Of a DNA stretch of 64,000 nucleotides, positions 6,066-28,554 are shown one piece after another; the stretch's first letter is position 1; each line of letters begins with the position of its first letter. Made by a program: the position numbers and the translations under genes. The stretch covers positions 1 through 64,000 of the forward strand of contig QPMI01000071.1 in NCBI GenBank assembly GCA_004431415.1. The letters are read 5' to 3'. The notes below the pieces were generated by a model. It was not told where the DNA came from, did no database searches, and saw nothing but the letters and a program-made list of their open reading frames with translations. This DNA is from Cyanophora paradoxa CCMP329 (taxonomy: Eukaryota > Plantae > Glaucophyta).

Positions 6066-6737
6066 ATGACGCTCGAGCTCGTCCCGTACGACCCCAAGTG
6101 GGGCGCTGCCCGCTGCTGGCTCGCCGTCGAGCCCGAAGAGGATTCGAGCGTGCGGTACGAGGCGGTTGAGCAGCCGCTCGATGGGGACCCGGCGAGGGAT
6201 TTTCGCGCACGTCGTCAGCACGAACAGTTTGCGACGCTTTGCTTTGTGGCGTGGCGGTGCTTTCGCAATCGTTTCCGCGAGCCTCCTCGGGGAATCTGCG
6301 TTCCGGACGAGTGTCCCGTCTGTCTGGACCGCCTCTTGCGGCCCGTCGCCCTCTCCTGCGGACACGTAATGGATTTCCACTGCCTCGTACGCGTGCATCA
6401 CGCCACGTGCCCCCTCTGCCGCGCCGCGGTCGAGCCAGACGGGATCTACGCGCTGACCGACGAGCACCGTCGCCGGGCGGCCTCGGAGGAGGGTTACGTC
6501 CAGCGGCTTCGCGAGGCCGCCTCGCCCGACGGCGATCTCGGCTGGATGGCCGATCGGATCCGGCGAAGGCTCGCGGACCCGTCTTGGATGGCGTGGGACT
6601 CGGCCGAAGAGCGCGAGAGGAAGGCGCGCCTGCAATTGTACAGAAACTGCGGCGCGTCGAGGGCTGCGGCCGGTATCGATGCTCCATTTTCGCAGAGAGC
6701 CTCGGCCGTGGCGGTCGGCGGCGCATGCGCAGGCTGA
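6066..6737 (+). CDS. RING-finger protein (C3HC4-like, Asp at one ligand position)
   Basis: CPVCLDRLLRPVALSCGHVMDFHCLVRVHHATCPLCR. Confidence 0.85.
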   Translation: MTLELVPYDPKWGAARCWLAVEPEEDSSVRYEAVEQPLDGDPARDFRARRQHEQFATLCFVAWRCFRNRFREPPRGICVPDECPVCLDRLLRPVALSCGHVMDFHCLVRVHHATCPLCRAAVEPDGIYALTDEHRRRAASEEGYVQRLREAASPDGDLGWMADRIRRRLADPSWMAWDSAEERERKARLQLYRNCGASRAAAGIDAPFSQRASAVAVGGACAG

Positions 6738-8027
6738 ACGTCGGACGCGTATACGTGCATGTACGCGTACGTATAGCGCGTATACGGCCGCAACCATAGC
6801 CAGTCGAGCTAACGTACGCGAAGTACTCAGCCGAGTCCCAGTACGAGTAAACTTGTAAATGAAATGAATCAAAATCGTCCTCGTCGAGCTCGAGCTCGAG
6901 AGAGTGTGTCGCGGTCGCGGCCGATAGCGATAGCACAACGCGAGCACGTCCGCGCGCGGCGTGGGCGTCGGCCCTCGGCAGGCCGGCGCCCCACGCACAG
7001 GCCTAAGGTCGGCGCGCGCGCGACCATGGGCGGCGCGCCCTCGAGCTCGAGCTCGAACGCGAGCTGGCGGCGCCTGGCGCTCGCGGCGGGCGCGGCGGAG
7101 CGCGGACGCGCGCGCAATTCGTGTCTCAGCGCGGGACAGCGCCGGCGGATGGCTATAGGCTATAGCTAGCGCTGGCGCCGCCGGGCCGGCCGCGTCGGCG
7201 CGGGGGCCCGGGGGCTCGAGCTCGGCGCCTCGCCCCGGACTTCGAGCGCCCGCGGCCGGCGCAGCACTAGTACGTATACTGGGATCCGGACCGCCGGCGC
7301 CGGACCGGCTGCAGGGGCCGGGCCGCGGCCGCCGGGCTCGGCGTCGCGCGCGGCGACATCGATCTCAGGAGTCCCGCGCCCGTTGCCGGGCCACTCCGAG
7401 CCCCTAGGCAAAGCGGCCTCGCCTCCGTGACAGATCTAGCCATAGACGGCCGCGGCCCGCGCCGCGGGCCGCGCGCGGGCCCGGCGGGCGGCGGGCGGAG
7501 GCGATTGCGACCCTAGATGGTTCGCCCTCGGCTCCGTGACAGTGACTCAGTGACTCTACCGGTACGGCGGTACCGTCTCTACGGCGGAGTCTACGCCGAC
7601 TCGACGTGCGACGTCGACGTCGACTCTCTCGCCGAGTCCCGGCCCCCGGGTCCGGGTCCGACGTCGACGCCGACTCGACGTCGACGGTCGCCGAGTAACA
7701 TCACTGTACAGTGTACATATATACTATGATACTCAGGCTATGATATATATGTACACCATAGTCGAGCTCGAGCGGCCGTCGGACCGCGAGTACTACGGTA
7801 CGAGTTCCGAAGTTCGAATTCGAAGAACTGATCATGATGCGCATGCGCATTCAATGATTCAATGATATCGATCATGATCATGATCATGATTGCGCATGCG
7901 CCGTGCACATGTACTAGGTACGTCATCATCGGCGTCATGATGATATGGATGCCATGATGCGCATCACGCGCGCGACGGGTACCGGGCGTACTACCGGCCC
8001 GGCGGTGGTCCAGCTAGTGCAGTCGAC

Positions 8028-8160
8028 GTCGCGTTGAAGTTCACGCGACGGGTGGTCCGGTGCAGTCGCGTTGAAGTTCACGCGACGGGTGGTGCTGTGC
8101 AGTCGCGTTGAAGTTCACGCGACGGGTGGTCCGGTGCAGTCGCGTTGAAGTTCACGCGAC
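8028..8160. repeat. 4 x 37-bp tandem repeat, each with the imperfect palindrome GTCGCGTTGAAGTTCACGCGAC
   Basis: Palindrome starts at 8028, 8065, 8102 and 8139; an AT-rich tract follows. Confidence 0.9.
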
Positions 8161-10033
8161 GGTCCAGGGCAAAACGAAATAATTTCGATCATGAAAATAA
8201 TTCTATTTTCCATGAATGACCCCCCGAGCCGGCGCGCGAGGGGCCCGAGGGCTCAGGTCTTTTATATGTTTTGAGCCCATGGGACACGCGCGAGGGGCTG
8301 CGCGAGGGGTCTTTTATATCATTTAGAATTAGATGTCGGCCAAAAATAGACCCGGCCGGGGGCCGGGACCGAAAATAAAATTTTTAATTTAATTGCCACG
8401 TATAAAAACGTACCGGAATTGCCGAGTCGATAAATTGCCGAGGCCAGCTAGACAATTAAATTGAGACAATTGCCAAGTTCTTCTATGGCGTCCTAAGAGA
8501 ATCCCTACCCCAAACAACATTGCCGTGTCGTTAAATTGCCGAATTCGGCGCGCGTATACGTCTCGGCAATTATTAATTACTAAGTTAATTAATATTTGCG
8601 GCAAGTTGCCGGCAACTACGCGGCCTACGCCGGCCGTAATGCGGCCGCGGTACTACCGTACGCGTAGTACGTATACAGCCCGGCCGCGGCCCGCCGTATA
8701 CGTACTACGTAGTAGTACGGTAGTACTACGTATACGCGGCGACCGCGGCGCCAGGCGCCGCCAGCTATAGCTATTAGCTACTAGCCTAGTAGGCTATAGC
8801 CTACAGCTGCGCTTCTGCGCTACAGCTCACCCGGCGGTCGGAGCTGTACGTATACTACTACGTATACGTAACCGTCGCGACCGCCCGGTGCGCGCGCGCG
8901 CCGCCCCAGTCGATCCCAGACTCCGGCCAGGCTCCCGCCGGCCGGCCCTCGAACGGACCGTCGGACGCAGGCGCGCCCGATTTGCCGCGGGTAGAATCTG
9001 GCAGTTCGCTACCATTAGCTCGGTCGAACGAGCGTCGATCCGAGCACCATGCATATATATATGCATATGCATGTCGATGGCGACGTCGACGGCCCATCAA
9101 AGTGCGCATGCGTGGCGGGCGAAGAACCGATCTGGACCCTCGAGATGATGTTAGATCACTTTTCAAAGTTTCGCGCAGGACCCCGCCGACGCATTTTGAT
9201 GGCTCACTCGACCGAGCCTCCCGCCCGTCGGAGGCAGCTCTAATGCATCAAACGTTGATTACTGATCGCTCTCTTATTCGCATCGAGGAGGACGATGATG
9301 GCTCGCGCGCCCGGGCCGCTCGGGCGCTCTAGATCTAGATCTGCGGCCAAGACTTCCCTCCGCAGTGCGCTTTAGCGAGCGCGTGCACGCACTGTTGTCG
9401 TTCTGTAACGCATACCGCGCGGTTGAACTCAAGATGGAGTTCTCGCCGCACGGGGGCTATGCGCGTGCACAACGCGGAGACGCGCTTGCGGCCGTCCGCC
9501 GCCGCGGGCCCTCCCCGCCGCGCCCGTTCCTCCGGAGTCCAGCCCGCGCTGCCCGCCACCGTCCGCCGCCCGGCCGCGGCCTCGCCCGCCGCGCCCCGTT
9601 CTCTAGCCCGCACTGCGGCCATCCGCCGCCGCGGGCCCTCGCCCGCCGGCGCGCCGCGTCCCGTCCCTCCATCCCTCCCTCCGGATCCGTACTAGTCTCG
9701 CCCCTGCGCTTCCATTGTTCGCCACATTGCGACGGAAAAGGATTTCTAATTATAAAATGGAACAACGTTCTATAGCATAGCTACTAGCTCGAGGCTCTAG
9801 GGCTCTCTAGATATGGAGTATGTAGTTCGCTTATCAATCGGGGCATGCGCACCCCTGCTTTCCTTTCCCCGACCAGAATCTGACTTTCTCTCTTCTTTTG
9901 CAATCAGAAACCTCTTTACATACACGTTAACCAATCTGTAATAAGAAGAACAAGAACGTAATAAAAGTACAAGGTTTTTAATTGTCCGAAGAGTACTAGA
10001 CTAGTTAAATTAAAGGAAAGATAGAACGAAAGC

Positions 10034-13000
10034 CTAAATCATACCATCAAATTGTCGCCGATCGCCCGCTTGTGCCTGGCGGAGGAGTGTGATTCGAGCA
10101 CGAGATGACAGGAGGCGGTTCCGAACGCGGCGCATCCTCGTCGACCTCGTCGGCCTTGCGCTTGCGGCTGCTGGGGCGAGGTGTCGGCGGCGTTGCTCCA
10201 TCTTTGCGCGAGGATCAAGGTTGGGCGCGAGGCACGGTCGCACTGCATACCTTTCGGAGAGCGACGGCGTGGCGACCGTACGGGGGCTTGGCGGGCGCCC
10301 TGCTCGCCGCGTGCGCTCGCGCGCGCGCCCGGCACGAGGTACTCTCCTCGCGGAGCGGAGCTTTGGCGACCTCTACGCTTTTGCGGGCTGTTGCCGGTGC
10401 CCACGGTCGCCGCCGATGCCGCGGCGCAGACGCGGGCGCGATGCAGCGCCGCGCCCCCGCCGCGTCCTCGGAACGCCTCCCTCGCGCTTGCCCGTGCGAA
10501 ATGCTTCGCATTGCGCGAGGACCGTCCAGCGGCTCTTCGGCTCCCCTCGGCGGACGGCCTGTTTCACGCTCTCGTAGTCGATGTCCTTTTCTGTCGCCTG
10601 ATTAAGCAAGAACGGGGCACGCGATGGGACGGACCTGATTCGTGGAGATGAACCCGAAAACTTCCTCGAAGACCTGGTACGTGAAGCCCGTACATTGCGT
10701 CCGACGCGAGCTCGTCAGTTCGTCGCGAAGCACTCCTCACGGAAGAGACGCTTGACCGACGGGGAGTCCCTTTCCTGCCGCTTCTCGTTCTTCACATTGG
10801 CCGCTCCTCCTGCTTGAACTTCATGATGGACTTGATGATCTCGCGGCGGAGTTTGGCTCGGTGGCATGAAGATGCTGCGAACAGGATTAAACGCGAACGA
10901 ATACGCACAGGACGGCGTACTCTTCCGAAGCGACGAAAAAACTTGTCGTCATGTTGAGCGGATAGTTGGTCGCGGCGACTATAATCGGACACGGCCGGGT
11001 CGCTGTGCGAACTCGCCGGTGCTCGACGTCGTTGTAGAGTTTGTCCACCGCCGTCGCAACTAACACTCTGTGAGTCGCGGGAAACGTGCACGAGCACTCG
11101 AGCGTACCGTGTTCAGGACCTTCTCTGCAGTTCGTCCGTCGACGGCTTGGAAGCTGGACGGTCGTATCCACCTCGCTGGACCAGACGTATTACGAGAGCG
11201 CCATATTTATCACAGGAATCGAGGTGAACGCACTCTAACATAAAAACGACGTCTGCATGTCGTGGGCGATGTTGAAGAACGCCTCGACGACCTTCTCGGA
11301 TTGCCCGTACTGCTGCAAGATCAGGGATGGAGCGGGTGCGCCGGCGAACGGCGAGCACGTATTCGTTGATCTGGACGGCTTGTACTCGAGGAAGCTGTAC
11401 CCGATGCGGCGAGCGAGCTCGCGCGCGAACTGTGACTTGCCTGTGCCCTGCGCGACGCAAATCAGCGAGCGCGAAGCGGGCCCCGCGCGGAATCACGACC
11501 GGCGGGCCGAACAAGAGACTCCAGTGGCGAGAGGCGCTGAAGGGACGGCCATCGTCCGCCGCCTCGTCTCCCTCGTCGGGGTCCAACCGGTTTGGACCGA
11601 GGGCCTGCTCGAGGTCTTCCATGGTCCCCTCCGGAACGACTGGCGACCGAGTCGGATAAGATTCATCGAGGCGCGGCGACACGCTCGCACCATAGGGATG
11701 CATGCTCGCGAGGCGCTCGTTGTCGATGAACGCCTTTTGATGTTCTCCGCGGCCTCCGCCTGAGCCCACACACCGCCTTGCCCCACGCCGTTTCGAAGTC
11801 CAACTTTCTGTCGGAGAACGTGAGAACGGATCGCCCCCGCCGCGAGGTGCGGGCAAGAGGCACCGATCCATGTCGGGGTCGGTCTTGGCCATTGTGGTGC
11901 AGGTAGAGGGGGTGTTCGGTGGTAGATTGGATCTCGGGTCGAGGAGGCATGACAGAAGGGCGTCGTCGCCACGCAAGCCTTCCTCCGCCACGTGTGCTTC
12001 TAGCGACCTTCGGACGGTCTTGATGAGCTCATCTCCGCGCTCCGCTTCTGCCGCCTACTCTCCTCGCTCTTCGACGCTCGACCGCCCTTGGCGGGGGCGG
12101 GGGCGCGGCCGCCGCGCCGGAGCCGTCGGCGCCGCCCCCGCCCCCGGCGCGCGTGCTCCTCCACATCGAGGACCGCCTGCCCAAGAGAGAAGTTGGGCGC
12201 GTTGAGCTTCTTCACGTGCGTTCGCGTCGTCTTCGGGCCCATCATGCGCAGACAGGGAAACGCCCGGAGCGCCGCGCCGATCTTGCGAATCCGCAGAAGC
12301 TGCGCATGCGAGCGAGGCGTCAGGGTGGCGCCCGCGCCGACGAGCGGGATCGGGCGGACCACATCGACCAAATTCTTCTTCCCCTTTTCGATGTCGGTGT
12401 GGTTGACCGTCTTGTCGCGAAAGTCTTGGACCGTCCCCGTCGTTTCGAGGAGAGCATCTTCGCCCAGTCGAGCTTGCCGCCCGGATCTCGATCGAAATCC
12501 GCTATCTTCTCCTCGACGAGGCCTCGAATCCGTTCGCTCAGGGTCTTGCTGCTCAACGACTCGACCGCTCGCCCCGCCTTCTTCTGCGCATCCTCCTCCT
12601 CTATCCGCCGACCTCGTACTCGTAGAAAGGACGACATACTGCGACGAAAGAGCTCGTCGGCGGCAGAGTGGGAATGGGATTGGGAGGCGTTGTACCTGGC
12701 AAACCATCATAAAGGTCGCGGTGTTCTCCAGCTCGCCTGCCGTGACGATGGAAGCGGCCGCCGACATGAACCGATCCAGCTCCCTGTACTTGCTCGATCG
12801 TTCTTGATTTGCGAGATGAGATCCACAGGTGCGGAGGCGGCGAGCCCGCGCATGGCCGCGGACAGCTCGCCCGACGCGAACGGGTTGACGCTGACAATTG
12901 CGCTGTTGGAGGAGCTTTCGCTCGCATCCGCCACCACCGTGCCCGCTGGCGCCGGCGCCGTGCTCGACGACGGCAAGGCTGCGGCTGGCGAATGCTGAGG

Positions 13001-14059
13001 TGGTCGAGGGACGACCCGCCGAAAGCTGCCGAGCCAGCCATCCGCGAGATTCTCGACGATGACCTCCGCCTGTACTCGACCGTCGCGTCGGCGCGACGCG
13101 TACGGCCCTTGCGCGGGCGGTCTTGATCATCGTCCGAATCGTCGCCAGCTTCTTCGCCTGCTCGTCCTCCTCGTTCTCCTCGTTTTCTTCTCCTCCGTCG
13201 CCGTCGCCGGCCTTGCCGTCGCCGCCGTCGCCTCTTGGGACCTTCTTTCTCCTGCGGCGCTGCCCTTTCTCCGGCTTCGAATTCTTTTCGCGCGCCGCGG
13301 CCGAGTCGAACACGCGCTTGAACAGATCCAACGCTGGTTCGCCGCCCGCTGCAGCCCTCCGGAAGCCCCGCAGTGTCGTGGTACTTTGCACAGACGGAGC
13401 CTGTGTTCCCGAGATTGACGGCCTCGGGACTCCTCCGCATGCGCTGCGCATCGAGCGGTTACAACGAGACACTCTACACAGTCGGTACGATGCGCACCAC
13501 TCCGCAATCGCGTTCCTGTACCGCGGAAGCGCTCGTCCGAGATGAAGCACGGAAGACACAATCGGCGTCGTGCGCCGCAGTCGGGCTTGCAGAACGAGAC
13601 CGGGAGCAACAACACCTGCTTACATACGACACAATGACCTCCGCTGCGGATCGGCGTTAGCGGAGCACGGCGCGCCGCGGTGCTCGTCATAGCGCGCACC
13701 CGTCGACTGGGCGGCGGGGCGGCGTTCGGCGGCTTCTGCGGACCTACGCTCCCGCCCGACTGCATCCGCTACGCGGAGCTTTCGCGTGGGCGAGCTTTCA
13801 CGGTACCAGCCGGCCAAGCGGTGTCTCCCATCTGCTAAGACGCGTTCCAGCCGGTCTGCCGCGTTTTTTCGTCCCTTTCGAGCATCGTTGAGCCCCCTTT
13901 CAATTCCGGCCTCGCCCCGGATGAGGACGACAGCATCGGCGAATTCGCGTGCGTTCGTCTCGTATGCAGCCTGAAACGCGAGCGCGCATGTCGGCGCGCC
14001 CTTGCGTGCCCTAGCTCGCGAGCGCGAACATGAGAGGTCGAGCCCACATCGTGGTCCAT
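10034..14059 (-). CDS. Spliced gene (~10 introns): N-terminal RING-like Cys cluster + classical AAA ATPase (VPS4/spastin/CDC48-like); ends approximate
   Basis: After removing GT-AG introns (e.g. 11448-11499, ~11313-11358, 11176-11233, 12639-12695) and using both copies: TGVLLFGPP|GTGKSQFARELARRIGYSFLEYKPSQINEY|QYGQSEKVVEAFF, Walker B VVFMLD|EVD, second region of homology IVAATNYPLNMDDKFFRRFG. N-terminus has HCVVCKQVLLLPVSFCKPDCGARRRLCLPCF. Confidence 0.85.
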
Positions 14060-14489: not shown

Positions 14490-15975
14490 TACAGAGTCAT
14501 CCCGCCCGCGCAGATGGAGGTGGTGACTGAGCTCGCGGGGTACGAAGGAAACAGAACAGAACCCACCGCCGCCCTCCGCCGGCCCGTGCCCCCCGGCGGC
14601 CGTCATGGAGCGGCGGCGACTCCGTCTAGGACGTGGCGGCTGCGGTGCCGCGCGTACCCCCCGGCTGCCGTCACGGAGCGGCGGCGCGTCCCTCTAGGGC
14701 GGCGCGGCCGCGGCGCCGCGCGTACCCCTCGGCCGTCACGGAGCGGCAGCGCCTCCGTCTACGGGGGGGGGGCGGCCGCGGCGCCGCGCGTAGCCCCTCG
14801 GCCATCACGGAGCGGCGGCGCCTCCGTCTAGGGCTCTCCCTCCACCAGCATCTCTTTCCTTCGAACCCCCGCGGCGCGGTACGCCCTCGCCCGACTCCGG
14901 CGCCGCCCTAGAGGGAACTGACTCGGCTCCGTGACGGGCGGCGGGGGTAGGTGCACCCTCTTTCGTTCGTACCCCCGCGGCACGGTACGTCCCTCGCGCG
15001 ACGCTGGCGCCGCCCTAGAGGGAACTGACTCGGCTCCGTGACGGGCGGCGGGGGTAGGTGCACCTCTTTCCTTCGTACCCCCCGCGGCGCGGTACGTCCC
15101 TCGCGCGACGCCGGCGCCGCCCTAGAGGGAACTGACTCGGCTCCGTGACGGGCGGCGGGGGTAGGTGCACCTCTTTCCTTCGTACCCCCGGCGGCGCGGT
15201 ACGCCCCTCGCGCGACGCCGGCGCCGCCCTAGAGGGAACTGACTCGGCTCCGTGACGGGCGGCGGGGGTAGGTGCACCTCTTTCCTTCGTACCCCCGCGG
15301 CGCGGTACGTCCCTCGCCCGACGCCGGCGCCGCCCTAGAGGGAACTGACTCGGCTCCGTGACGGGCGGCGGGTAGGCCCGTGTCTCTTTCCTTCGTACCC
15401 CCGCGGCGTGGTACGTCCCTCGCCCGACGCCGGCGCCGCCCTAGAGGGAACTGACTCGGCTCCGTGACGGGCGGCGGGGGTAGGTGCACCTCTTTCCTTC
15501 GTACCCCCGGCGGCGCGGTACGCCCCTCGCCCGACGCCGGCGCCGCCCTAGAGGGAACTGACTCGGCTCCGTGACGGGCGGGGGGGTAGGCCCGTGTCTC
15601 TTTCCTTCGTACCCCCGGCGGCGCGGTAAGCTCCTCGTGCTACCCAAACCCCTGAAGATGCCACTAAGATATATATAAAAAGCCAAATAGATAACGAGTA
15701 CAACTCTCATCCCCGCCCGCGCAGATGGAGGAGCCCACCGAGCTCGCGGGGTACGAAGGAAAGAGGACAGAGCCCACCGCCGCCCTCCACCGCCCGTACC
15801 CCCCTCGGCCGTCACGGAGCGGCGGCGCCTCCGTCTAGGGCGGGGCGGCCGCGGCGCCGCCCGTACCCCCCTCGGCCGTCACGGAGCGGCGGCGATTCCG
15901 TCTAGGGCGGGGCGGCCGCGGCGCCGCCCGTACCCCCCTCGGCCGTCACGGAGCGGCGGCGATTCCGTCTAGGGC
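14490..15975. repeat. Repeat module 1: partial core + 4 x ~67-bp A units, 7 x ~107-bp B units, TATA core, 3 x 67-bp A units
   Basis: CTAGAGGGAACTG at 14908, 15015, 15122, 15229, 15335, 15441, 15548; CTAGGG of A units at 15835, 15902, 15969. Confidence 0.9.
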
Positions 15976-16319
15976 GCGGCCGATCTCCTCCCTCAACCGT
16001 GTACCCCCTCGACAACCTCCACGCGGACGACGAGCCCTTTCCGCATACACGTGCCCTCGTTCGCTTCCACATGCCCTCTGCAACGCCTCTCCCGCCCCGT
16101 ACCCCTCGATACCCCGGCCCGCCCGCCCAACTCCCGCCGTCGCTCGCGGATCGCGAGCCGACTGCGCGCGTTGTTCTCGAATATACGTGATTTGCGGATT
16201 CAACCGAAACGCTGGACGCGTGGGGCGGGAAGGCGCTTTCGCTCGAATTCAACTGACGGCGTGCTTAAAGGCGGAGCAGACGGTCCCTGGACGCACATTT
16301 GCCATCGACCTCGACGATC

Positions 16320-16795
16320 ATGGAGGCCTCTACCGTCGTTCAAAACGCCGCCCGTCGCATCTCCAGCGCCCTCGTCGCCGGTCGACCGATCGCCCTCGCG
16401 CTCCGGACTCCGACCCTGCTCAAGCGCGTCGCCGAGGTCGTCGAGCCCGCCGTCGCCAGCCTCCTCGTGCGCGCACACGTCGTCGTACTGCCGGAGCCGC
16501 GCGGCCACTGGCTCGTCCGCATCACCCCGCCCGGAGCTCAGGAGCCCGCCTCTTGGGGATCAGCGACGAACTCCCCGCCTCCGAGAGCGCCGTCCTCGCC
16601 CTGCTCGCGGGGATTGAGACCGTCGTCGCCCGCTTCGCGCGGGCCGAGGCGGACGAGCTCTCCGCAAAGATCCTCGCGGATCCGCGCATCGCGCACCTGC
16701 GGCGCCGCGTGGGCGTCACGCGCCAGGAGGTACCCGGAGCACCGAATTCGATCTTCTGTGTTTACGCGGTCGGCCGCGGCGCGAGCCGTAGTTGA
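16320..16795 (+). CDS. Hypothetical 158-aa protein, copy 1 (1-nt indel at ~16567)
   Basis: Duplicate of 50699-51175. Confidence 0.6.
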
Positions 16796-17534
16796 CGCGT
16801 TCGTAGGCTCCGTACAGCTAGAAAACGCAGCGCTATAGCTACAGCCAGGCCGTGATGCAATAAGCTCGTCGACGTCTGTTTCGTAAATGCGTACCCCAAA
16901 TCCGCTGATCATGGGAGCGAGCCGGGGCGAGCTCTGCGGCGAGCCGCGAGGCGCGTCGCTGTCTAGCGCTCGTTGCGGGCGTTTCGCTCGCACAGCGAGC
17001 GTCCAGCAGGCCACATCGGCGTGTCACCGGAACGTATCGTTGCAGCGCCCCCAGCGCGACGCAGATGCGGCGGTTGGGTGAGAGAGCCGCGGATCGGAGA
17101 CCTCGGCGGCTCGGATCGCCTCGGCTTCGTGCCGGCGGCCGGCGGGTGTGGCGCGCGCGCGCCCGAGGTACTGTACCTTCGCCTCCGACCGCAACAGCTT
17201 CCGGACGATATTCGCGGTCGAAAAGTCGAGGAGATGGCGGAGGACTGGTGCGCCGTGCCATATGCATCGCGCCGCGCAGCGAGGTCGAGCGCCTTGATAG
17301 CTTACAACCGCGCAGGCCTGGGTCGTCCGGCGCGGACGAGCTCGAGGCCCGGCGGCCGCGGCCTCGATCGAGCGGGCTACGTGCGCGTTCTACCGACACG
17401 GCCCGAGCTCCGTGATAGGCGGCGTGGACCCACGCCGGACGGGCGCGCGGCCAATCTAAGCGGATCCGGAGTCGCGTTCGCAAGCTGTCGCCTTCGATAC
17501 GATAGGTGCGCCCGTTGCTCAGCGCCGGCGTCCC

Positions 17535-18700
17535 GTTAGAGGGGCTTGACGCGGCTCCGTGACGGGCGGCGGGGGTAGGTGCACCCCTCCTTCGTTCGTA
17601 CCCCGCGTAGGAGGTGAATTCCGCGCCCGACGCCGACGCCGCCCTAGAGGGAACTGATGCGGCTCCGTGACGGGCGGCGGGGGTGGGCCCGTGTCTCTTT
17701 CCTTCATACCCCCGGCGGCGCGGTGAGCCCCTCGCCCGACGCCGGCGCCGCCCTAGAGGGAACTGATGCGGCTCCGTGACGGGCGGCGGGGGTGGGCCCG
17801 TGTCTCTTTCCTTCATACCCCCGGCGGCGCGGTGAGCCCCTCGCCCGACGCCGACGCCGCCCTAGAGGGAACTGACGCGGCTCCGTGACGGGCGGCGGGG
17901 GTAGGTGCACCTCTTTCATTCGTACCCCCGGCGGCGCGGTGAGCCCCTCGCCCGACGCCGACGCCGCCCTAGAGGGAACTGACGCGGCTCCGTGACGGGC
18001 GGCGGGGTAGGTGCACCCCTCCTTCGTTCGTACCCCGCGGCACGGTACGTCCCTCGCGCGACGCCGACGCCGCCCTAGAGGGAACTGACTCGGCTTCGTG
18101 ACGGGCGGCGGGGTAGGCCCGTGTCTCTTTCCTTCGTACCCCCGCGGCGCGGTACGTCCCTCGCCCGACGCCGGCGCCGCCCTAGAGGGAACTGACGCGG
18201 CTCCGTGACGGGCGGCGGGGTAGGCCCGTGTCTCTTTCCTTCGTACCCGGTGACGCGGTAAGCTCTCGTGTCACCCATATCCCTGAAGTTGTCACTAAGA
18301 TATATATAAAAAGCCAAATAGATAACGAGTACAACTCTCATCCCGCCCGCGCAGATGGAGGAGCCCACCGAGCTCGCGGGTACGAAGGAAAGAGGACGGA
18401 GCCCACCGCCGCCCTCCGCCGCCCGTGCCCCCTCGGCCGTCACGGAGCGGCGGCGATTCCGTCTAGGGCGGGGCGGCCGCGGCGCCGCGCGTACCCCCCT
18501 CGGCCGTCACGGAGCGGCGGCGATTCCGTCTAGGGCGGGGCGGCCGCGGCGCCGCCCGTACCCCCCTCGGCCGTCACGGAGCGGCGGCGATTCCGTCTAG
18601 GGCGGGGCGGCCGGGGCGCTGCCCGTACCCCCCTCGGCCGTCACGGAGCGGCGGCGATTCCGTCTAGGGCGGGGTGGCCGGGGCGCCGCCCGTACCGTGT
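17535..18700. repeat. Repeat module 2: 7 B units, TATA core, 4 A units
   Basis: Same unit sequences as module 1; core ACTAAGATATATATAAAAAGCCAAATAG at ~18294. Confidence 0.9.
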
Positions 18701-18916
18701 ACCCCCTCTTCGGCCATCGCGGTACTTCCTTCCCGCCATCGCAACGCATATACCAAGCAATAACTCGCGTACACGCACAGGAGCGGGCGCTTTCCGCCGT
18801 CACGGAGCGGATGTGAATCCTCCAAGGCCTGGGTCGGCTCTGTCGAGCGCGTGAGCGAGCCGCCCCCCGCCCCTAGGACAATTGCCCGTCGCTCCGTGAC
18901 AATACCGATCCTTCGC

Positions 18917-21900
18917 TCAGGTACGCGTCTTTGGCGGGCGACCGCGCCGCCGGGCAGGCTGGGCGCCGCGCCCGGCGCCGCCGCCGCGCGACGACGACGG
19001 AGACGAGGACGGCGTGGCAGGCGCCGGGAGGCCCAGCAGCTCCAGAACGCGCTCGGGGCCGGTTCGGATCTCGACCGTGCCGTTCCGTCCCTCGTACTCG
19101 ACGGGATAAAGTGACGAAGGAAAGCTCCACTCGCGCGGTCCGCCCTCCTGGCTCGGCGCCCACGCGCCGCCGAAGCGCTTCAGCACCACGAAGCGTGACT
19201 CGTACTCGCCGCTCGGCAGGTCGATCGTCTGGACGAGGCGCGCGAACCACACGCCGGGGAGCGGGCTCGCCGCGTGCGTCGCCAGCGCCGCCACCACCTG
19301 CCCCGCCGGGTACGGCGAGGCCGACCGCCAGTGCAGGTGGTAGAGGGGCGGCGCGGGGCCGGCGGCGGCGACGCCGACGGGGACGGGCTCCTGGGAGGCG
19401 CCGCCTCGGCGCCCGCGCGCGCGGCCGAGGCCACGCCGGCCGCGCGCGCCACGGAGGAGGCCGCGCGAGCAGTAGTGCTCGTGGGCCCGCGCCCCGGCCG
19501 AGTTCTTAAACTCCTTGCGGTGCGTCAGGGCGGCGGCGCGGGGGGGGCGGCGCGGGGCGGGGCGGCGCGACCTGCTCACCCGATCGCAGGGCGCGCAGTA
19601 CCTCTGCTCGGCGATGGCGAGCTCGCGCTCGAGGGTGTAGTCGGCGTCCCAAGCGCGCGGCCTGTCGGCCCCCGTCCGCCGCCGCTTGGCCTCTTCGCTC
19701 CCGTCGGACGCGCCGCTCCCGTCCTCGCCATCGTCCTCCGAGTACGAGCTGGAGCTCTCCGCGCCGCGCCCCGCGCGGAAACGCGCCGAGGCGGACGGAG
19801 GCGCGGTTGACGGCGCCGGCTCGTCGTCGGCGTGCTCCTCGGAGCCTCCACCGTCGTCCCGCCCCACCTCGGTCCCGCCGCCCAAGCTCCCGCCCGCCGT
19901 CGAGGGCGCGGGGGATCCGGACGGCGGCGGCGGCGGCGGCGGCAGCGCCGGTGCCGGCGGGAGTTCGAGGCGGGGCGGCGCCTCGGCCGCGGCGGCGCTC
20001 TCGCGGGCCCGGAGCCGGGCTTCGTCGTGCTTGACGGCGAGCTGCTCGAGGTACGCCACCGCCGCCGCCGCCGTGCGCGCCCGCGCCGAGTAATCGTAAT
20101 TTTGCGTCGCCGTCAGCACCGAGTGGCCCAGAAGCTTGGCTGCCGGCGCGCGGGTGGGGCGAGGGAGGCGAGGGGGCGGGGGCGCTTCGGCGTACCCGTC
20201 CCGTCGACGACGGCGGCCGCGGTGTCGCCGGAGATGCGGTTCGCCGCGGCCTCGTCGCGCACGTGCGTCGTGATGATGGCCCGCATCGCCTGCGCCGTCA
20301 CCGGTACCCCCGTCCACTTTTCCGTCACGCGCTTGACAAAGACGCTCCAGGCCGAGTCGGAGAGGGGCGCTCCCGAGGCGCTCGTGAAGAGCCAGCCCTC
20401 GTCCGCGCCCCCCGGCAGCGGCGGGAGGAGGAGGCGCCGGTACCGCTCGACGTACGAGGTGAGCGGCCGCTGCACAAACTCCGGGATCGGGTAGCTGATC
20501 GCCCCCGCAGTTTTCGCGGTCTTCGACGAGAGGACGGCCTCGCCCTGCCCGCGTCCGCCCGCATCTGGGTGAGCGTGATTGTCCACGCGCCGCCGTCCCG
20601 CCGCAGCGTGTGGCCGATCCTGCGGGGGCGCAGAGGGCAGGACGGGGCCCTCGCTCGGCGCGGGGCGACGGCGCGGCGCGGGGGTACGGCACCTGAGGCG
20701 GCGGACGATGCCGACGCGCGAGGGCGTGGAGACGAGGAGCGACAGGAGGACGCCCTCGCGGAGGGCGAGCGCCCTCTCGTACTCCAACGGCGCCCGCTCC
20801 GCCGCCTCGAGCGCATCCAGCCGCGCCGAGAGGAGCGCCTCGAACGGCACCCAGTTCGGTCCGCGCTGACGCCATTTCACGCCTTCGCGCTTCTCCTTTC
20901 TCAGCTGGGCGATCAGGTTCCGCAGCGGGCGCCCGTGGGGGCCCTCGGAGCCGGCGGCGGCGCCGGCCGTCCGCGCGTGGACAAAGGAGTGGGCCTGGAG
21001 GGCCGCCTGCGTGTACCCCGCCAAGGTGCCCGCCCGGACCCTGCGCTCGCCGCGGAGAAACGCGAGGAACCGCATCCACAGGTCGATAAAGTCGACGCGG
21101 GCGCCGGAGAAGAGGTCGAGCGTGAGAGCGCCGTCGATCTTCTCGCGGAGGGCGCAGTACCCCAGGAACCGGAGGAGCGTCGTCCGCTCGTTCGCCAGCG
21201 TCGTGGAGCGCTCGACGGCGGCGCCGGGGCGGTCGGGGTTGAGGAGGCGGGTGCGAAACTCTTCGTACGCGGCGAGCTGCGCCTTGAGCTCGCGCGACTG
21301 ATCCTCCTCGCGCAGGCCGTACGGGGCGCCCCGCTCTGCCGGCTCGTCGCCCGCGGGGCCTTCGTCCTCCTCCTCGCCGTGCTCGTCGGCCGGGGGTACG
21401 GGCGGCGGGGGCGGCGAGGCCCCCGCCTCGGCGGACCCCTCGGGATCGGCGCCGCCCGAGTCCGACTCGGACTCGTCCGGCTCGGCGGGGGCGGGCGCCG
21501 GCGGGGCGCGGGCGCGCTTGGGGGGTACAGGGTCCCCGGCGGCGCCGAGCACCACGCGCTCGGGGTCCACGAGGGCGTCCACGTCAAAGAGCGTCGCCCC
21601 GCCGTGGTCCATGCTCTCCAGCATCCGCCGGTACGCCAGCCGCTTCTCGGCGATGAATTTCCCGTTGTCCTTTGCGATCTGATCCGCCATAGGGCCCCCG
21701 GGGCGGAAGAAGTGGATGGAGCCCTGCTCGAGCTCGTCCGACCACGGAAAGCCCGTCGTCGCCTCGACGATCCCCACGTCCGCGATCCAGAGGACCCCTG
21801 CGCGGTGCGCGCGGCATGAGTTTGATCCCGTTACCCCCGCGGAATCGAACCGGGCCCCGCACAGATGCCGCATTGGAACCCGTCCCCCTGGAGGCGCCCA

Positions 21901-23313
21901 CCGGCCGTCTCCTCGCGGTACGCGTGCGCGGGAAAGGCCGCCTGGGCGGCGTAGAGCAACCTGGCGTCGCAGGGCGCGCCGAGGCTGTCCCAGTACCGCG
22001 TCGTCCTGCGGGGGCGGCGCGATCGCGAGTGGCGCAGAGGACGCGGGCTCGGGCGCGGGGGCGCGGGGCGCGGCGCCGTCGGACCTCGCGGCGCCGGAGA
22101 GCACGAGCAGCGTCCAGTGCCCGCCGCTGTTCGACGTCCGCTCCGCCCCGCGCCGCGCGATCGACGTCGAGACCGGGCAGAAGAGGGTACCCCCGCGCCA
22201 CGAACCCCAGGGCCTTGCGCTGACGCCGCTCCTCGCCCGCCGCAGCGTAGCGCCGAAGGAGGCTCGTCAGAATCTCCACCGGCATGGGGTACAGGGCCCG
22301 CACGCGCGCGTTCTTGGCGCGGTGGAGCAAGAGGCTCATCACGTTGGCGACGTGCGTGTCGGCGAGCCACTCGCGCGCGCCAAAGATACCGACCCTGGGT
22401 CCCGCAGGCGCCGGCGCGGGGGCCGCGGCGGCGACGGTGGCGGGGTCGGCGCCCTCTAGCACGAGCCGCTGGCGGCGAAAGTCGAGGTGGAGGTTCGGAT
22501 CCCGGCCGGGGAGATCCTTCAGGAGGCTTTCGACGGCGACGGCGCTGAGGAACGCCCAGCGGCGCGCCGAGCTCCGCGTTCGCTCCCCGTCGACCTCGGC
22601 GCCGATGCCGGCGTAGTAGGTGAGCGTCCTCGTGAGCATGCCGAAGCGCTCGCGCCCGACGCTGAGCGTCGTAACGTTCCAGCGGTGCGGGCCGCCCGAC
22701 GCGAGTTCCGGGAGGCGGCGCTCGATCTCCCGGCGGAGCGAGTTCGTGGCGCGCGAGGAGCCGTAGAGGAGCTCGGAGAGCGACGCCATGGGGACCCAGA
22801 GCTTCAGGTCCGGAGCCTCGATCCGGGTCGCCGGCAGGGCGTAGAGCCGCTCGCCGCCGACGCGCACGACGTGCAGGTCGTAGCGGGAGAGGGCGCACAG
22901 GCGGCGGCGCTCGTTGGCGGCGTAGAACGCGGTGGCAGCGGCGCGCTTCCGGGCCTCGTCGCTGTCCGCCACGCCTGGTCGACGACCTCGAGCACGTACC
23001 TCATCGACAAGAGGCGCGGCGGGTCCTCGGGCGTGTACTCGCCGCGCCGGACGGCCCCGAGGGTCTCCAGGAGGAGGATCGCGTGCTCGCTCGGCACGGG
23101 CCGCGCTGGGACGCCATAGCGCGCGGTGAGCACGTCCTGCACCTCGTCCTCGCCCTCGCCCTCGGCCAACGGCGGCTCGCCCAGGACGCGCGCGAGCTCG
23201 GCAGAGCAGACGGAGGGCCCGGCGTCGGACTTTAGCACCACGAGCTGCGTCCGCCCCCACGGCCCGTCGAACTCGATCAGCTCGTACGCGTCGTGGACCG
23301 TCTGGAAGTACAT
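18917..23313 (-). CDS. Spliced multidomain integrase: unknown N-terminal domain + Ulp1/C48-type cysteine protease + tyrosine recombinase + C2HC zinc finger
   Basis: Protease: REWLADTHV, GGHWTLLVL, RYWDSLG, QGDGFQCGI|WVLW. Recombinase: TPSRVG (R), SSKTAK (K), WLF, TAQAMRAI, T|AKLLGHS, TQNY (Y). Zn finger: CAPCDR|EFKNSAGARAHEHYC. GT-AG introns at 21798-21862, 20620-20692, 20140-20195 and 19514-19579 each restore a motif in frame. Confidence 0.85.
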
Positions 23314-24000
23314 GGTCGCCGGCCGGGCCGTGCGGGCGGGCGACCCGGAGTGGGAGGGGCGAGGTGTTGGGATTCGACGTGCGGGGTGGGATCTATTTAT
23401 GGGTAACCTCGCACCTTTAATCCTCGCGCTCGCGTCGCCGATGTTATCTTTAGTCCCTGCGCACAGGCCGCGCGCGGGGCGGAAGGCCGACGGGAGCGGA
23501 CGAGGCCGAATCGTATCCCCACGAGCCGAGGCCGCCATCCCACGACGTTGATCACGTACGCCCGCCCGGCTTCGTCCCCCCCCTACACCTTACCCCCTCT
23601 GAAATTCGGCCAGGTTTGCCACCTAGGGGCGCCCCGCCCTCGTCGCCCGCCTGCGTCGCGGCGGCGGCCGCCGCGCCCCGCCCCGCATTGACCACGTACG
23701 CCGGCCCGGCTTCGTCACCCCCACCCCCACCCCCGCCTTTGCTAATATTCGGCCAGGTCTTCCACCAAGGCGCTCGGCAACGCGCGGCGTCGGCGACTCA
23801 TCACCGCCGCCCGCGGCGATGAGATCGGTGCGCCCCCGCCGGCTCGGGCTTCGGGGACGGCGCCGGGCGCCCTGCGACGCCGCGAGGCTCAGATCCGAAC
23901 GCGGCGGCGCGGGAGGCGGAGGGCCGTCTGGAGCGGACGTGGCCGAACTCTCCCCAGAAATGCCTCCGATCTCGCTCCTCCTCGAGCTCGTCTTCGTCGG

Positions 24001-24438
24001 ATGACAGCTATGACACCGATGATCCTTCTCTGCTCCGACGGCGTCCATATCCCGTGCCCCGCGGCGCTCGCCGCCGACGCCCGCATCCTCTCCCTCGCCT
24101 CGAGCTGCTCCGACGCCGACGTGGCCCCCGTCCCGCTCCCCTTCCGCTCCTCGCTCGTGTCGGCGGCCGGCGTCGCCCTCTCGCACCCCTCACCCGCGGC
24201 GGCCGCCCTCGCCCCCGGGGCCTACCCCGACCCGCGGGCCGCCGCCTCGGCTCTCGTCTTCCTCGCCGAGCTCGCGATCCTCGCCGATTACCTCGACGCC
24301 CGGCGGCTCGAGCTGGCGTGCGCGGCGCTTGCCAGCAGCGCGTCCGAGCTCGCCATCAAGTCCGCCTGGGCCAAGGCGAGCGTCCGTCCGCCCCCCGCCC
24401 CGCGGAAGCGCCCCTTTCAGGCTATCGGATCTTCGTAG
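24001..24438 (+). CDS. Skp1/BTB-POZ-like protein
   Basis: ILLCSDGVHIPC...ARIL...PVPLPF...LAELAILADYLDARRLELAC resembles the Skp1 pattern L.SSDG ... IPLP ... L.ELI.AANYL.I..L; C-terminal PRKRP is NLS-like. Confidence 0.7.
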   Translation: MTAMTPMILLCSDGVHIPCPAALAADARILSLASSCSDADVAPVPLPFRSSLVSAAGVALSHPSPAAAALAPGAYPDPRAAASALVFLAELAILADYLDARRLELACAALASSASELAIKSAWAKASVRPPPAPRKRPFQAIGSS

Positions 24439-26102
24439 GGACGTGTATTGAACGGCCTCTCCGAGTACTGCGTGCACCGGCGTCTGCGGGGCCAGGGGTA
24501 CAGATTTTGGGGACCCTTGGACCCCTCTCCGGGGACCTAGGGTTCGTTTTGAAACGAGGTCCGGGATCCGCACTAGCAATTTATTCGCGCTCTCCGGGCC
24601 CTCCCCAGCCCCTGCGATGCGTTTGTGCGGGGCCGACTTTTTGTTTAACGGGGTATTCGACGGTCCCTCAATCTGTATTGGACCTTTTGGTTTTTAATTT
24701 TTAGTTTCTTTGATGCACCTTGGCTCGGCACCTCGCTCGGGGTTTGTGTTTCTATGATACTAGGACACGATATTCGCACTCGGTGCCCTGCGTTTCCAAT
24801 ATTTCGGTTTTCGAGCCCTCGGTCCCGCCCATACATGGGAGGGGTCGGTCTCCCGTACCCCGTCCCAGACCCTCCCCCCGCCTCGAGCATCACGTACGGG
24901 AGTGCCCCACCCGTAGAATTCATTTTCAAGCGGGGATTGGGAGGTTTTGGGGGTCAAGGGCCGGGGCTCATGATCACCCCGACGCCACCGCCTCGACCTT
25001 GTCCTCGCGACGGATGCGCCTCCGGAGCTGTATATCTTTGGGCTGGATCGTCACGCTGCGGCGTAGGCGCGCGTCTAGCGCGTCAGGTCGGGCATCGGGC
25101 ACGCGATCGCGGGACATTCAACTTATAATATTAATTAGGGTATCAATGATGATTATTTGGGCGCACCGCTTTGCATGAATGGCCATCAAATTGCCGTCCT
25201 CAAAGGTCTCGATCGCGTGCCTGCGCGCGGGGGGCCGGGGTGGGATGCATATGATTACGTTAATTAGATGTGGGAATTTAGTATGATCATGAGACTTACG
25301 CCTCGGCGGCCTCACGCAGGGCGAGAATCGAGTCCTTTGACCAGCGGATCCCAAACGGGACGTTGGACTCGCCCGTGTTGCGCCGTTCCTTGAGTTGATC
25401 GTCCGTGATCTCCTTGACGAGTCGCAGAAACGGACCGAGCGCGATGATAGGCTGCGTCGACTGCGTTATATGTACATGTTAGTATATCAATATCTATACC
25501 ATAGTATCATGTACGTTTCCGCATACGTAACTTAGTAAGGAAATTGAATGATTATATATAACGTACCTTTTGCCACTTGCGAATTTCCCTGAGAGCCACC
25601 GTGCCCTGAATTTCGAAATCATAGTCGCCGATTCACCAACTCAATGAGTAAGCTTAAGCTTTAAGCTTACTATTAAGAAACGTGTACCGGGCGATAGCGA
25701 TGAGGTTTCTTCACCCCACCGGCCGCGGGAGCGTTCTTTCTCGCGCTCTTGGACGACGACTTCAGAGAGGCGAAGCGCTTGCGCGGGGCCTTGTGTCCGG
25801 TCCCCTTCTTAGACCCTTGCGCGTGTTTCGTGCGCGCCATCCGGGTCCGATCGTCCCGCGCGCGAGCGGCCTGCGAGAGTCGATCGCGTGGGCGTCTAGG
25901 GTGCGGCCCTCGTGGGGGGATCCGGAGGCCTAGGCCTAGAATTAGGGGCCGGGGGGTTCACGGGGGTACTCAGAGGCCCAGCGAGATGCCGCTGCGCTCA
26001 TCTCGCGAACAAACGATTTTCCGGATGTATTTGTGCATCCCGCGAGACCGAAGAGGGGGTACATGGGAATGTACATGCCTAGCTATAGGTTTAATAATAT
26101 AA

Positions 26103-26438
26103 TTAGAACTCGTCGGCGAAGCGCTTCGGCGGGCCGACGAGGCGGAGGGGGGCGCGGGGCTTGAAGCCGGCCTTGATGCATTCCGCCGCGTAGACTTCGT
26201 AGGTAAAGCTGTTCAGCGCGTCGCACACGAGGGCGTCGAGCTCCGGATCGCTGGGGAGGCCGCACGCCGTAATGTCCTCGGGCGTCCAGAGCTTGGCAGA
26301 GGGGCGCGTCTCGGACGTGGGCTTGATCTCGACGGCGGGGTCCGTGCTCGAGCTCGTCGGCGTCGCGACTGCATCGCGATCGGCGAGGGGCGTCGCGCGC
26401 GACGGCGGGCTCGCGTCGGTGTACACGTTGGCGTCCAT
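26103..26438 (-). CDS. Hypothetical 111-aa protein
   Basis: ACCATGG start context, normal composition (LWTPEDITACGLPSDPELDALVCDAL), AT-rich 3' tract. Confidence 0.55.
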   Translation of the reverse strand: MDANVYTDASPPSRATPLADRDAVATPTSSSTDPAVEIKPTSETRPSAKLWTPEDITACGLPSDPELDALVCDALNSFTYEVYAAECIKAGFKPRAPLRLVGPPKRFADEF

Positions 26439-26621
26439 GGTGGCTGGAATTCAACGATCGCGAGGAGATTTAGAGAAAGAGGAATGGTGGTCCGGGCCTT
26501 CCCTGCGGGGTCCCGCCCGCGCAGAATCCCTCGCGGATTCGAGCGAAAGCAGCAATTTCACTATCTTGTATTCAGACGAAACCAGGCTCGAGCGCACGGA
26601 TACACGAATCGAGGATGCAGC

Positions 26622-28554
26622 TCACGCGGCCTCGGCGTGATCGTTGGGGGCCGACGTCGACCCGCCGCCGCCGCCATCCGAGCTCGAGCTCGCGCCGTCC
26701 GCCTTGAGCCGAAACACCGCCGCCGGCATCCGAACCAGGGCCGCCCCGTTCTCGCCCTTGTACGAGGCGACGCGCTCCTGGAGCCGCTGCTCGAGCGCGG
26801 CGACGGCCTCGGCGGGGGCCCGCTGGAGGAGCGGGAGGTAGGCGATAAAGTCGTGCGGGCTGACGCCATCGCCGACGACGCGCGCAAGGCCGGGGAGCCG
26901 CTGCAGGACGCGTGCGCAGGAGCAGAGGTCGGCGTAGACCTTGGCGCACGCCGCCCGGTCCTCGAGGCGCAGGCCGCACGCCTCGAGGATCGGCGAGTAC
27001 TTTGGCTCCACGCTGTCCTTGCGGAAGAGGCCCCAGCTCCTCGGGTTCCGCCCGTTGGCCTCCCGGAAGCGCTCGAACGCGCCGAGGATGCCGGAGCTGA
27101 CGAGGAGGAGGCACCGGATCCGCTCGCGACCCGCGTGCTGCGCGCGGGCGTAGAGGGCCCGCCGGGCGCCGGCGTCGGCGTCGAGCTGGATCCCCACCAG
27201 GGCCGCGTCGACCTGCGGGCGGGGCGGGCATGAGGTGAGGCCGGGGGAGGGGTCGAGATGGAGGGCGTACCCCCGCCGGAGGCCGCGCTCGAGCTCGGCG
27301 AGGGCCGCCGCGCCCTCGTCCTCCTCCTGGGCGGGCGCACCCTCCTCCCCGGCCCCTCGTCGCCCCCGCCCCGCTCCGAGCCCGAGTCGGACGAGGAGGA
27401 GAGCTCCTCCATCGCCCCCTCGAACGCCGCCCGCCGCTCCTCCTCCCACGTCTCCATCGGGTCCGCCTCGCCCTGCGCGCCGGGCGCGCCCTCCTCGGAG
27501 CCGGCGTCGGCGTCGTCGTCGTCGTCGTACTCGGAGAGCCTGCACGTGTACGCCTGGTAGAGGAGCTTGGCGAGCTTCTCGCTCTCCCACGGCGGCCGCC
27601 GCTCGGCCGGCTGCCGCCGCGCCCGCTTGGCGAGGGGCCCCGGGCCCGCGGCGGCGGCGCCCTTGCTGGCGTCTCCGTCCTCGAGCTCGTCCTCTTGCTC
27701 GCGCTCGGCGGCGGCGGAGGCCGCGCGGGCGGGGGCGACGCGCCGCGGCGGGCGGCGCGGCGGCTCCGGATCCGATTCCGCAGAGGCCGCCGCGGCGGGG
27801 GTGGGCTCCGGGGGGGCCGGAGCCGCCCTGGGAATCTCAGCGGGCGCCGGCGCCGAGGAGGACGAGGCCCCCGCGCCGTCGCAGAGGGCGAGGGCGGGGC
27901 GCGCCTCCGGGGCCGACGGGCGCGCCGCCGACGGGCGGTTCGCGAGGTAGACGGCGTGCTGGGCGGCCTGGGAGACGCTCGCCGCGCCGGCCCAGGACTC
28001 GGGGCGCTCGGCCTCGTGGACAAAGGCGCGGTAGGCAAGGTAGCCGTCGACGCGCGACGAGGGGACGAGGGCGGCGAGCGTGGGGTGCGGCTCGCGGCAC
28101 GCCCCCTGCGCCATGGGGCACTCGACCTCGCCCTCGGCGTCTCCGGCGGCGTCGGCGCAGCGAAGGGCCTGCGCGCGCGGCGACGGGGTGAGCGGGGCGG
28201 TCAGGGGGGGTAAGGCGGGGGTACCGGTACCTTGGGGACGCAGGCGAGGCACGCGAGGCCGTGGTGTCCGATGAGGCGGCCCGCCCGCTCGTCGTTGAGG
28301 TCGATCGCGCGGTCGAGGTCGCCGCCGCCGGCGAGCTCGACGATGCTCGCCGCGAGGCACGCCGGGACGTAGGCCGGAGGGTGGAGCCGCTGCGAGCGGC
28401 AGACGGAGCATTGTGGGCGTAGGTCGAGTTCGAGCCACGCCGAGATGTACTTGGGCCGCGAGACCCGCGCGCCGCGCGTATCCAGCGGCGGGGCGGCGCC
28501 GGCGGACCCCGCGGCGGGCTCGGCCCGCTCCTTACCCTTAGCTCCCGTACCCAT
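26622..28554 (-). CDS. Spliced RING-like zinc-finger protein with acidic linker and helical C-terminal domain
   Basis: CSVC...PAC...GHHGLACLACVPK|ALRC...VECPMAQGAC joined across a GT-AG intron at 28169-28230 (CTGAC branch site). A second intron is possible at ~27212-27270, and a probable 1-nt indel at ~27390. Confidence 0.65.

Follow-up and report, generated by a model that had tools for sequence, protein, structure and literature searches.

In this study, we analysed a 64,000-nucleotide stretch of the glaucophyte Cyanophora paradoxa CCMP329 (assembly GCA_004431415.1, contig QPMI01000071.1, positions 1 to 64,000 of the forward strand; the window hereafter) and describe in it a multi-copy 34-kb mobile element of the tyrosine recombinase (YR) type, which appears to carry a mixed kit for host manipulation, namely a protease, a RING protein, a likely Skp1 mimic and a histone H3 variant. 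We give this reading a probability of about one half. The element is delimited by a sharp end with several flanks, it encodes RING and CE-clan protease domains and an intact H3 gene, its Skp1-like gene and a spliced gene that we call gene 5 are transcribed, and the protease, gene 5 and H3 are conserved in diverged relatives. An earlier note on this DNA had proposed that the cargo is dominated by mimics of the ubiquitin/SUMO system, five of about a dozen genes, acting together against silencing. All five open reading frames (ORFs) were found at the positions it had given; because two of the claimed RING domains gave no RING match, the supported number is three of about 14 genes per unit, a count in which the small ORFs are uncertain. 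The ubiquitin genes are a notable minority of the cargo and not a proven single-purpose module.

Limits and copies of the element

A self-BLAST comparison showed that bases 1–24688 are a repeat of bases 34177–59071, with 98.9% identity, 240 gap openings and 13 substitutions. Single-base indels between the two copies adjoin the same base in 192 of 224 cases, and bases missing from one copy but present in the other are restored by short-read contigs. Since gaps far outnumber substitutions, indels adjoin the same base and short reads supply what was lost, the frameshifts are assembly errors. The element contig stops exactly at position 59065 in all three DNA runs aligned to the right end, and beyond this position three continuations were found: the flank seen in the window, the head-to-tail junction of 24682|24683, and a third, different flank. 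DNA-run contigs also break exactly at 24682|24683. One complete unit therefore extends from 24683 to 59065 (34,383 bp, no strand assigned), and bases 1–24682 are the right-hand part of a preceding tandem copy. The span described in the earlier note crosses the junction, which places gene 5 (26622–28554) in the next copy; although they straddle two tandem copies, all five genes belong to one element.

No terminal repeat longer than 8 nt, inverted or direct, was found within 300 nt of the unit ends, and a 60-nt junction contig suggests that there is no shared core sequence, which is unusual for a YR element. The contig depths in DNA run X1 were 224 for the element, 139 for the junction and 83 and 93 for the flanks, values that are not copy numbers. 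CpG is not depleted in the element (observed/expected 1.2–1.45), which says little for young copies.

Identical or near-identical protein models are present in the EukProt Cyanophora paradoxa proteome on four contigs, and the same proteome holds diverged relatives, namely one integrase (54% identity over the alignment) and five gene-5 models on four contigs (57–66%). Both the copies and the content of the second family were judged from named protein models, and the diverged integrase and gene-5 relatives are assumed to form one such family. Searches with the replication protein, the integrase and gene 5 found no relatives outside C. paradoxa, pattern searches being weak for intron-split genes. 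In IMG/VR two loci matched, the match covering just 60 residues, and the locus examined (L001) is an ordinary phage integrase; on this unrelated phage contig (L001:92-8449) the integrase adjoins a 2,785-amino-acid protein.

The recombinase, its protease domain and the replication protein

The spliced integrase gene (18917–23313, minus strand) is the second gene from the right end of the element and encodes an N-terminal region, the CE-clan protease, the YR core-binding and catalytic domains, a C2HC finger and a conserved C-terminal domain. Five protein models were compared, of which P0013–P0016 are near-identical and P0017 is the diverged relative. The YR identity is indicated by matches to Pfam Phage_integrase (E 0.02, three of the five models), to a PHROG integrase (E 3.7e-4) and to XerC (E 0.003), all below the curated cut-offs, by an XerC match of the diverged relative (E 3.8e-4) and by the presence of the catalytic Arg, Lys, Arg, His and Tyr. 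The N-terminal (22145–23313) and C-terminal (18980–19396) domains, both on the minus strand, are 50% and 57% identical between the families and match no Pfam family, and a metagenome search returned no integrase relatives.

The protease domain (21615–22393, minus strand) is interrupted by two GT-AG introns and contains His400, Asp417, Gln450 and Cys456 in the numbering of P0014. At the level of sequence comparison its membership of the CE clan is confirmed: in a search of the PDB the relative P0017 aligns with the ChlaDub2 structure at E 5.3e-5 across the His, Asp, Gln and Cys, a five-sequence profile of the domain reached E 7.3e-5, and the His-Asp-Cys triad and the oxyanion Gln are kept in the CE order in both families. 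The domain is identical to that of P0017 at 124 of 212 aligned residues (58%), compared with 26–41% in the flanking linkers. It had been named an Ulp1-type protease, and this more specific part of the claim was not supported. Pfam Peptidase_C48 matched only one of the five models (E 0.035, 14.4 bits against a cut-off of 20.7) and none of the other four, the nearest structures are bacterial deubiquitinases/deneddylases and XopD, and the 14 structures listed include no eukaryotic Ulp1/SENP, so that a specificity for SUMO over ubiquitin or NEDD8 is unsupported. As far as its sequence can tell, the protease resembles a deubiquitinase or deneddylase as much as a deSUMOylase. YRs form covalent protein-DNA intermediates, and by its fusion to the YR the protease would be placed at the integration site, where it likely removes ubiquitin-family tags from integration complexes.

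The intronless replication protein (33697–39669, minus strand; 1,990 amino acids) combines N-terminal motifs that we take to be primase-like with a CyRepA1-like helicase, the latter matched in NCBIfam at E 1.7e-4 and far below the cut-off. Only its own copies were found among 7,985 scored candidates and 1.84 billion representatives. According to the mechanism that we propose, the YR would excise and insert the unit, perhaps via a circle copied by the element's own primase-helicase, and such copying would explain the head-to-tail arrays.

A divergent histone H3

At the left end of the element lies an intact gene for a divergent histone H3 of 162 amino acids (24974–25840, minus strand), which has four in-frame GT-AG introns, an H3-type tail and a long loop 1. 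Two short insertions apart, the tail aligns with H3.1 (E 1.5e-9), and for the exon of the central fold the sole match at E 0.01 is yeast Cse4 (E 0.0085), the loop 1 of the variant being longer even than that of Cse4. The criteria proposed for CenH3 are an extended loop 1, the loss of Gln69 and Phe85, the loss of a Thr numbered 118 and an N-terminal tail that has diverged strongly (PMC4359364; here, as for most papers cited below, we refer to the part of the paper that was consulted). In addition to its extended loop, the variant has Leu and Trp in place of Gln69 and Phe85. It keeps Thr118 (H3 numbering) and has Gly instead of Thr107, the residue usually considered for CenH3. Its tail is not of the highly divergent kind, and for this reason the protein is not filed as a CenH3.

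In the second family, a related H3 piece, identical in 44 of 75 aligned columns (59%), forms part of a fused gene-5 model (P0024); since it recurs there, the pairing of H3 with gene 5 is conserved. The H3 introns are AT-richer than the element (GC content 0.30–0.54), and DNA run X1 has a 7-base insertion and a 31-base skip in them. In the region 24750–25724 none of the three RNA-like runs described below has contig cover while the DNA run continues, which is a weak hint that the H3 gene is silent. The variant would be deposited together with host histones and mark or protect the chromatin of the element, as has been argued for the deposition of single viral H3s (PMC9145170).

The claimed ubiquitin-system genes

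The RING protein (6066–6737, plus strand; 223 amino acids; second copy at 40266–40936) was confirmed as such. Two of its 13 Pfam matches exceed the curated cut-off, zf-RING_2 (E 6.9e-7, 29.9 bits against 27.3) and zf-C3HC4_3 (E 1.1e-6, 28.7 against 27), seven ligands are in place and a near-identical model exists on another contig. Its sequence makes it a likely E3 ligase, which would recruit a ubiquitin-conjugating enzyme (E2) of the host and likely redirect host ubiquitin ligases.

The Skp1/BTB-like protein (24001–24438, plus strand; 145 amino acids) is supported as Skp1-like by the ESM Atlas, where its top matches are Skp1 clusters (0.93, recognition 3016) and nine of the ten best family-bearing matches fall into one family or clan; no match was found in Pfam or the PDB. 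A single-sequence AlphaFold model is uninformative (confidence score pLDDT 51), structure searches with it returning only generic helical bundles. Judging from the family, a Skp1 mimic would likely act as a decoy or adaptor for host cullin ligases.

The two remaining genes are real, but neither was confirmed as a RING protein. Between 10034 and 14059 a RING-like domain joined to an AAA ATPase had been claimed; we place there, on the minus strand at 10034–13765 and with approximate limits, a Cys-rich zinc finger (13457–13642, ZZ- or RING-like) followed by a spliced classic AAA ATPase (about 10600–11750), which may be one gene or two. This copy is heavily frameshifted by assembly errors and its true spliced frame is uncertain. 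The AAA part was recovered weakly, by PF00004 on two exon pieces (E 0.042 and 0.23), while no RING family matched the finger in any of three readings, its best match being ZZ_ADA2 at E 0.022. The best structures for a 59-residue AAA piece are katanin, Vps4 and spastin (E 0.11–1.9); p97 is not among its 28 weak structure matches, which include two NADases, and the Walker A piece matched only unrelated P-loop kinases.

Gene 5 (26622–28554, minus strand), which had been read as a second spliced RING-like gene, consists of a Cys/His-rich N-terminal domain, an acidic linker and a helical C-terminal domain, with introns at 28169–28230 and about 27213–27270. An RNA contig of run X15 skips the first intron and supports the gene. 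Conservation is highest in the Cys-rich domain, where 107 of 136 residues (79%) are identical in the second family and ten Cys/His are kept. The Cys and His follow a RING-like ligand order with atypical spacing, 31 residues lying between ligands 3 and 4, where a canonical RING has 1–3. None of nine gene-5 models matched a RING family in Pfam, a profile search of the PDB gave no match, and an hhalign comparison with the first RING gave none either (0.15%). Its ESM Atlas neighbours are RING_4-type clusters at only 0.77–0.78, its AlphaFold model is uninformative (pLDDT 34) and a metagenome search found no relatives.

Three ubiquitin-system genes among 14 correspond to a binomial P of 0.002 at a background of 2%, 0.008 at 3%, 0.03 at 5% and 0.16 at 10%, the background rates being assumed and the test post hoc. 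An excess of such modules in the element is therefore probably real.

Transcription and the 9-bp motif arrays

Runs X15, X16 and X19, which carry three study codes, were taken to be RNA, as GT-AG introns are missing from their contigs. Spliced RNA comes from at least three regions of the element. Upstream of the Skp1-like ORF, plus-strand GT-AG introns are skipped in all three RNA-like runs, with at least three joints listed, and contigs of 2,425 nt in X15 and X16 define a spliced plus-strand RNA (21315–24434) that runs over the protease/integrase gene and ends in the Skp1-like ORF. A model with 12 plus-strand introns comes to exactly the span of the record, 2,390 nt. For each of four further gaps, GT-AG introns can be placed on the plus but not on the minus strand, with more than one choice of inner positions in two of them. 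Since the introns resolve on the plus strand only, the RNA listed over the protease and the N-terminal part of the integrase is antisense, although a contig is not proof of a single molecule. An overlapping protein on this transcript was considered and rejected, there being no coherent long ORF except the Skp1-like one. The transcript probably reaches about 20570 or beyond, and plus-strand skips are hinted at near 20569–20633 and 18988. The antisense RNA may be a means of self-limitation or a trigger of silencing; overlapping transcription is common in C. paradoxa (PMC6704402). The earlier note would have been refuted by genes that are untranscribed and absent from related elements; transcripts were found for those of its genes that were open to testing, and two of the five persist in diverged relatives, so that this refutation failed.

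One 9-bp motif has 74 matches in the window, where 0.88 are expected, 48 of them per unit and none beyond 59065. It is mostly the shared core of three different tandem-repeat units of 67, 107 and 109 bp, which form arrays between 28687 and 33626 (28687–30924 and 32997–33626, no strand assigned) and further arrays at 14597–15980 and 17547–18900, with second copies; it also occurs singly upstream of genes (7423, 7532). The arrays are candidate origin iterons, enhancers or targets comparable to those of VANC in Arabidopsis.

Alternative explanations

Several observations weigh against a YR element with a mixed kit for host manipulation. The first His of the HxxR motif of the YR is replaced in both families, and among the matches listed no sense-spliced integrase contig was found, the contigs listed being antisense. 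In the RING protein, Asp103 occupies ligand position 5, with His105 beside it. The Skp1 assignment has one source of evidence, the language-model features of the Atlas, and the 162–170 features shared are at the borderline of that tool. Furthermore, the diverged integrase and gene-5 relatives lie on different contigs.

An anti-silencing role of the cargo is plausible. The stronger proposal of a coordinated toolkit, in which five ubiquitin/SUMO mimics, the H3 variant and a putative binder of the 9-bp motif would keep the element unmethylated and transcribed, we regard as doubtful. C. paradoxa has 32% CpG methylation, which is focused on repeats, and most repeats are methylated (PMC12344493); spliced RNA from a repeated element in such a host fits an escape from silencing but may also be ordinary leakage. 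The 48 motif copies in non-coding tandem arrays recall the target arrays of VANC (PMC5735166), but replication origins would explain them equally well. The strong conservation of the Cys-rich domain of gene 5 with its ten Cys/His, and the H3 variant adjoining gene 5 in two families, also speak for the toolkit. Set against this are the two unconfirmed domains of the five, a protease whose nearest structures are bacterial deubiquitinases/deneddylases rather than Ulp1/SENP, an AAA piece nearest to katanin/Vps4 and not to p97, and antisense RNA over the integrase. In addition, the association of a C48 protease with a transposase has long been known, and its describers tied it to transposition and DNA repair. 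As hints of interference with chromatin, the H3 variant and the 48 motif copies are better than the five genes of the earlier note.

A bolder idea, which we think unlikely, is that the element represents a new class of giant YR transposon, without a capsid and self-replicating, whose chromatin is of its own making. Its H3 variant, with fold features of the centromere type, would be loaded at the 48-copy motif arrays and defended by the RING, Skp1-like and deubiquitinase proteins, copies in integrated or circular form would escape methylation or segregate like mini-chromosomes, and antisense RNA from the Skp1-like locus would throttle the integrase.

It might also be argued that H3, Skp1, RING and AAA genes of the host were acquired independently, that only the protease serves transposition, and that the ubiquitin theme reflects nothing but the commonness of RING-like fingers. 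The host-like spliceosomal introns, AT-richer in the H3 gene, would agree with such uncoordinated capture, three of 14 genes are unremarkable at a 10% background, and associations of transposable elements with F-box genes have been interpreted as captures that may have gone either way (PMC12062965). We nevertheless find this distinctly unlikely. The cargo genes are intact despite a strong divergence from every homologue that can be searched, and the identity between families is 79% for gene 5, 58% for the protease and 59% for the H3 piece; such retention of intact, diverged genes indicates long selection on the element.

Least probable of all, and very improbable, is a derivative of an endogenous Polinton-like or giant virus with an unrecognised capsid, whose ubiquitin and histone genes would be ordinary viral genes for host takeover: the size, the YR with a primase-helicase and the GIY-YIG nuclease resemble insertions of the Polinton-like type (PMC10120064), the Atlas clusters near the Skp1-like protein include one composed mainly of Nucleocytoviricota, viruses with a single H3 gene have been described (PMC9145170) and giant-virus insertions have been reported in C. 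paradoxa (PMC12344493), but no capsid or packaging ATPase was matched among the ORFs scanned (Pfam, PHROGs, NCBIfam), scans which divergent capsids can escape, terminal inverted repeats are absent (no match above 8 nt within 300), the genes are intron-rich, and IMG/VR offered no relatives beyond two ordinary phage integrases.

Relation to known mobile elements

The YR element with its mixed kit shares single traits with several known systems. Cryptons are likewise driven by a YR, lack terminal inverted repeats and have a proposed circular intermediate, and the oomycete Cryptons CryptonF-2_PS and CryptonS combine the YR with an Ulp1-related C48 peptidase (PMC3212892). In contrast to these compact elements, the present one is 34 kb long, with about 14 genes, its own 1,990-residue replication protein and a cargo of RING, Skp1-like and H3 genes, its protease is fused N-terminal of the YR, and the 4–6-bp terminal direct repeat of Cryptons was not seen, a comparison for which right flanks only were available.

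Ulp1/OTU domains turn up repeatedly in Ginger1, Mutator and Helitron elements, and a link to transposition and repair has been drawn (PMC2836005), and Zisupton carries an F-box (PMC12062965). As in the present element, a ubiquitin-family protease or a part of the SCF (Skp1-cullin-F-box) ligase is thus attached to a transposase; those elements, however, rely on DDE, rolling-circle or KDZ enzymes and have a single module of this kind, whereas here there are several free-standing genes and a histone. Taken by itself, the ubiquitin theme varies one that is already known.

The fungal Starships, as described in the parts of the literature consulted, are also giant, YR-mobilised, cargo-carrying and capsid-less.

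Their captain is a DUF3435 YR encoded by the first gene. Unlike them, the present element has no DUF3435 match in any of the five integrase models, has its YR near the right end, encodes its own primase-helicase, forms tandem arrays and lives in an algal host. With Polinton-like viruses it shares the range of 15–40 kb, the YR and the primase-helicase (PMC10120064), but it lacks a recognised capsid or packaging ATPase and terminal inverted repeats, and has many spliceosomal introns. VANDAL elements with their VANC proteins in Arabidopsis resemble it in having an element-specific short motif amplified in non-coding tandem repeats (PMC5735166); here, by contrast, no VANC homologue or demethylation has been shown, and an origin or an enhancer is a possible role for the motif. 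Single viral H3s are, like the H3 of the element, lone histones that would need host H4, H2A and H2B, and are 73–87% identical to host-type H3 in the fold (PMC9145170), whereas the variant described here has a long loop 1, Cse4 as the only match of its fold exon and a capsid-less carrier.

No description of the element was found in the literature searched, which comprised listings, abstract openings and some main texts. The main text of PMC6704402 contains none of the words 'virus', 'viral', 'histone' and 'ubiquitin', 'Cyanophora' does not occur in the consulted part of PMC10120064, nor 'recombinase' in that of the main text of PMC12344493. A preprint on chromatin evolution (10.1101/2021.11.30.470311) describes the capture of chromatin readers by transposable elements, the part of its main text consulted being without 'Cyanophora'. 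For the combination of the ubiquitin theme with a capsid-less YR element of 34 kb, a replicase of its own and an H3 variant, no match was found in the literature searched.

Few cases are known in which mobile elements counter eukaryotic silencing, mainly VANC in Arabidopsis and the ligases of viruses. The present element is intact, multi-copy and transcribed in part, and its glaucophyte host is grown axenically and has a published methylome, so that such counters could be tested on it directly. It would also show that giant YR transposons with cargo are not confined to fungi, and it lends itself to the question why transposases are so often accompanied by Ulp1/OTU-type proteases.

Other features of the window

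Among the remaining genes, a GIY-YIG nuclease (31205–31732, plus strand) matches Pfam above the cut-off (E 2.4e-8), and a small zinc-ribbon protein (39783–40223, plus strand) matches Pfam DZR at E 0.033 and a PHROG annotated as HNH endonuclease at E 4.1e-5. A 111-amino-acid ORF (26103–26438, minus strand), for which the Pfam, NCBIfam and PHROG scans gave no family, is covered by an RNA contig of X15. The small ORFs between the repeat arrays (16320–16838, 17234–17539, 29680–29898, 30996–31175 and 31978–32442) have no convincing family match; the ORFs at 29680 and 50690 were suspected to be paralogues, an idea that was rejected.

The region 7000–9400 comprises about 2.4 kb without a convincing ORF, with many short palindromes, a 37-bp repeat at 8028–8162 and an AT-rich stretch, and is a candidate origin or control region. 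In the right flank, positions 60500–63600 are very GC-rich, C-skewed and of low complexity, with poly-C and poly-G runs, and DNA contigs branch at about 60600.

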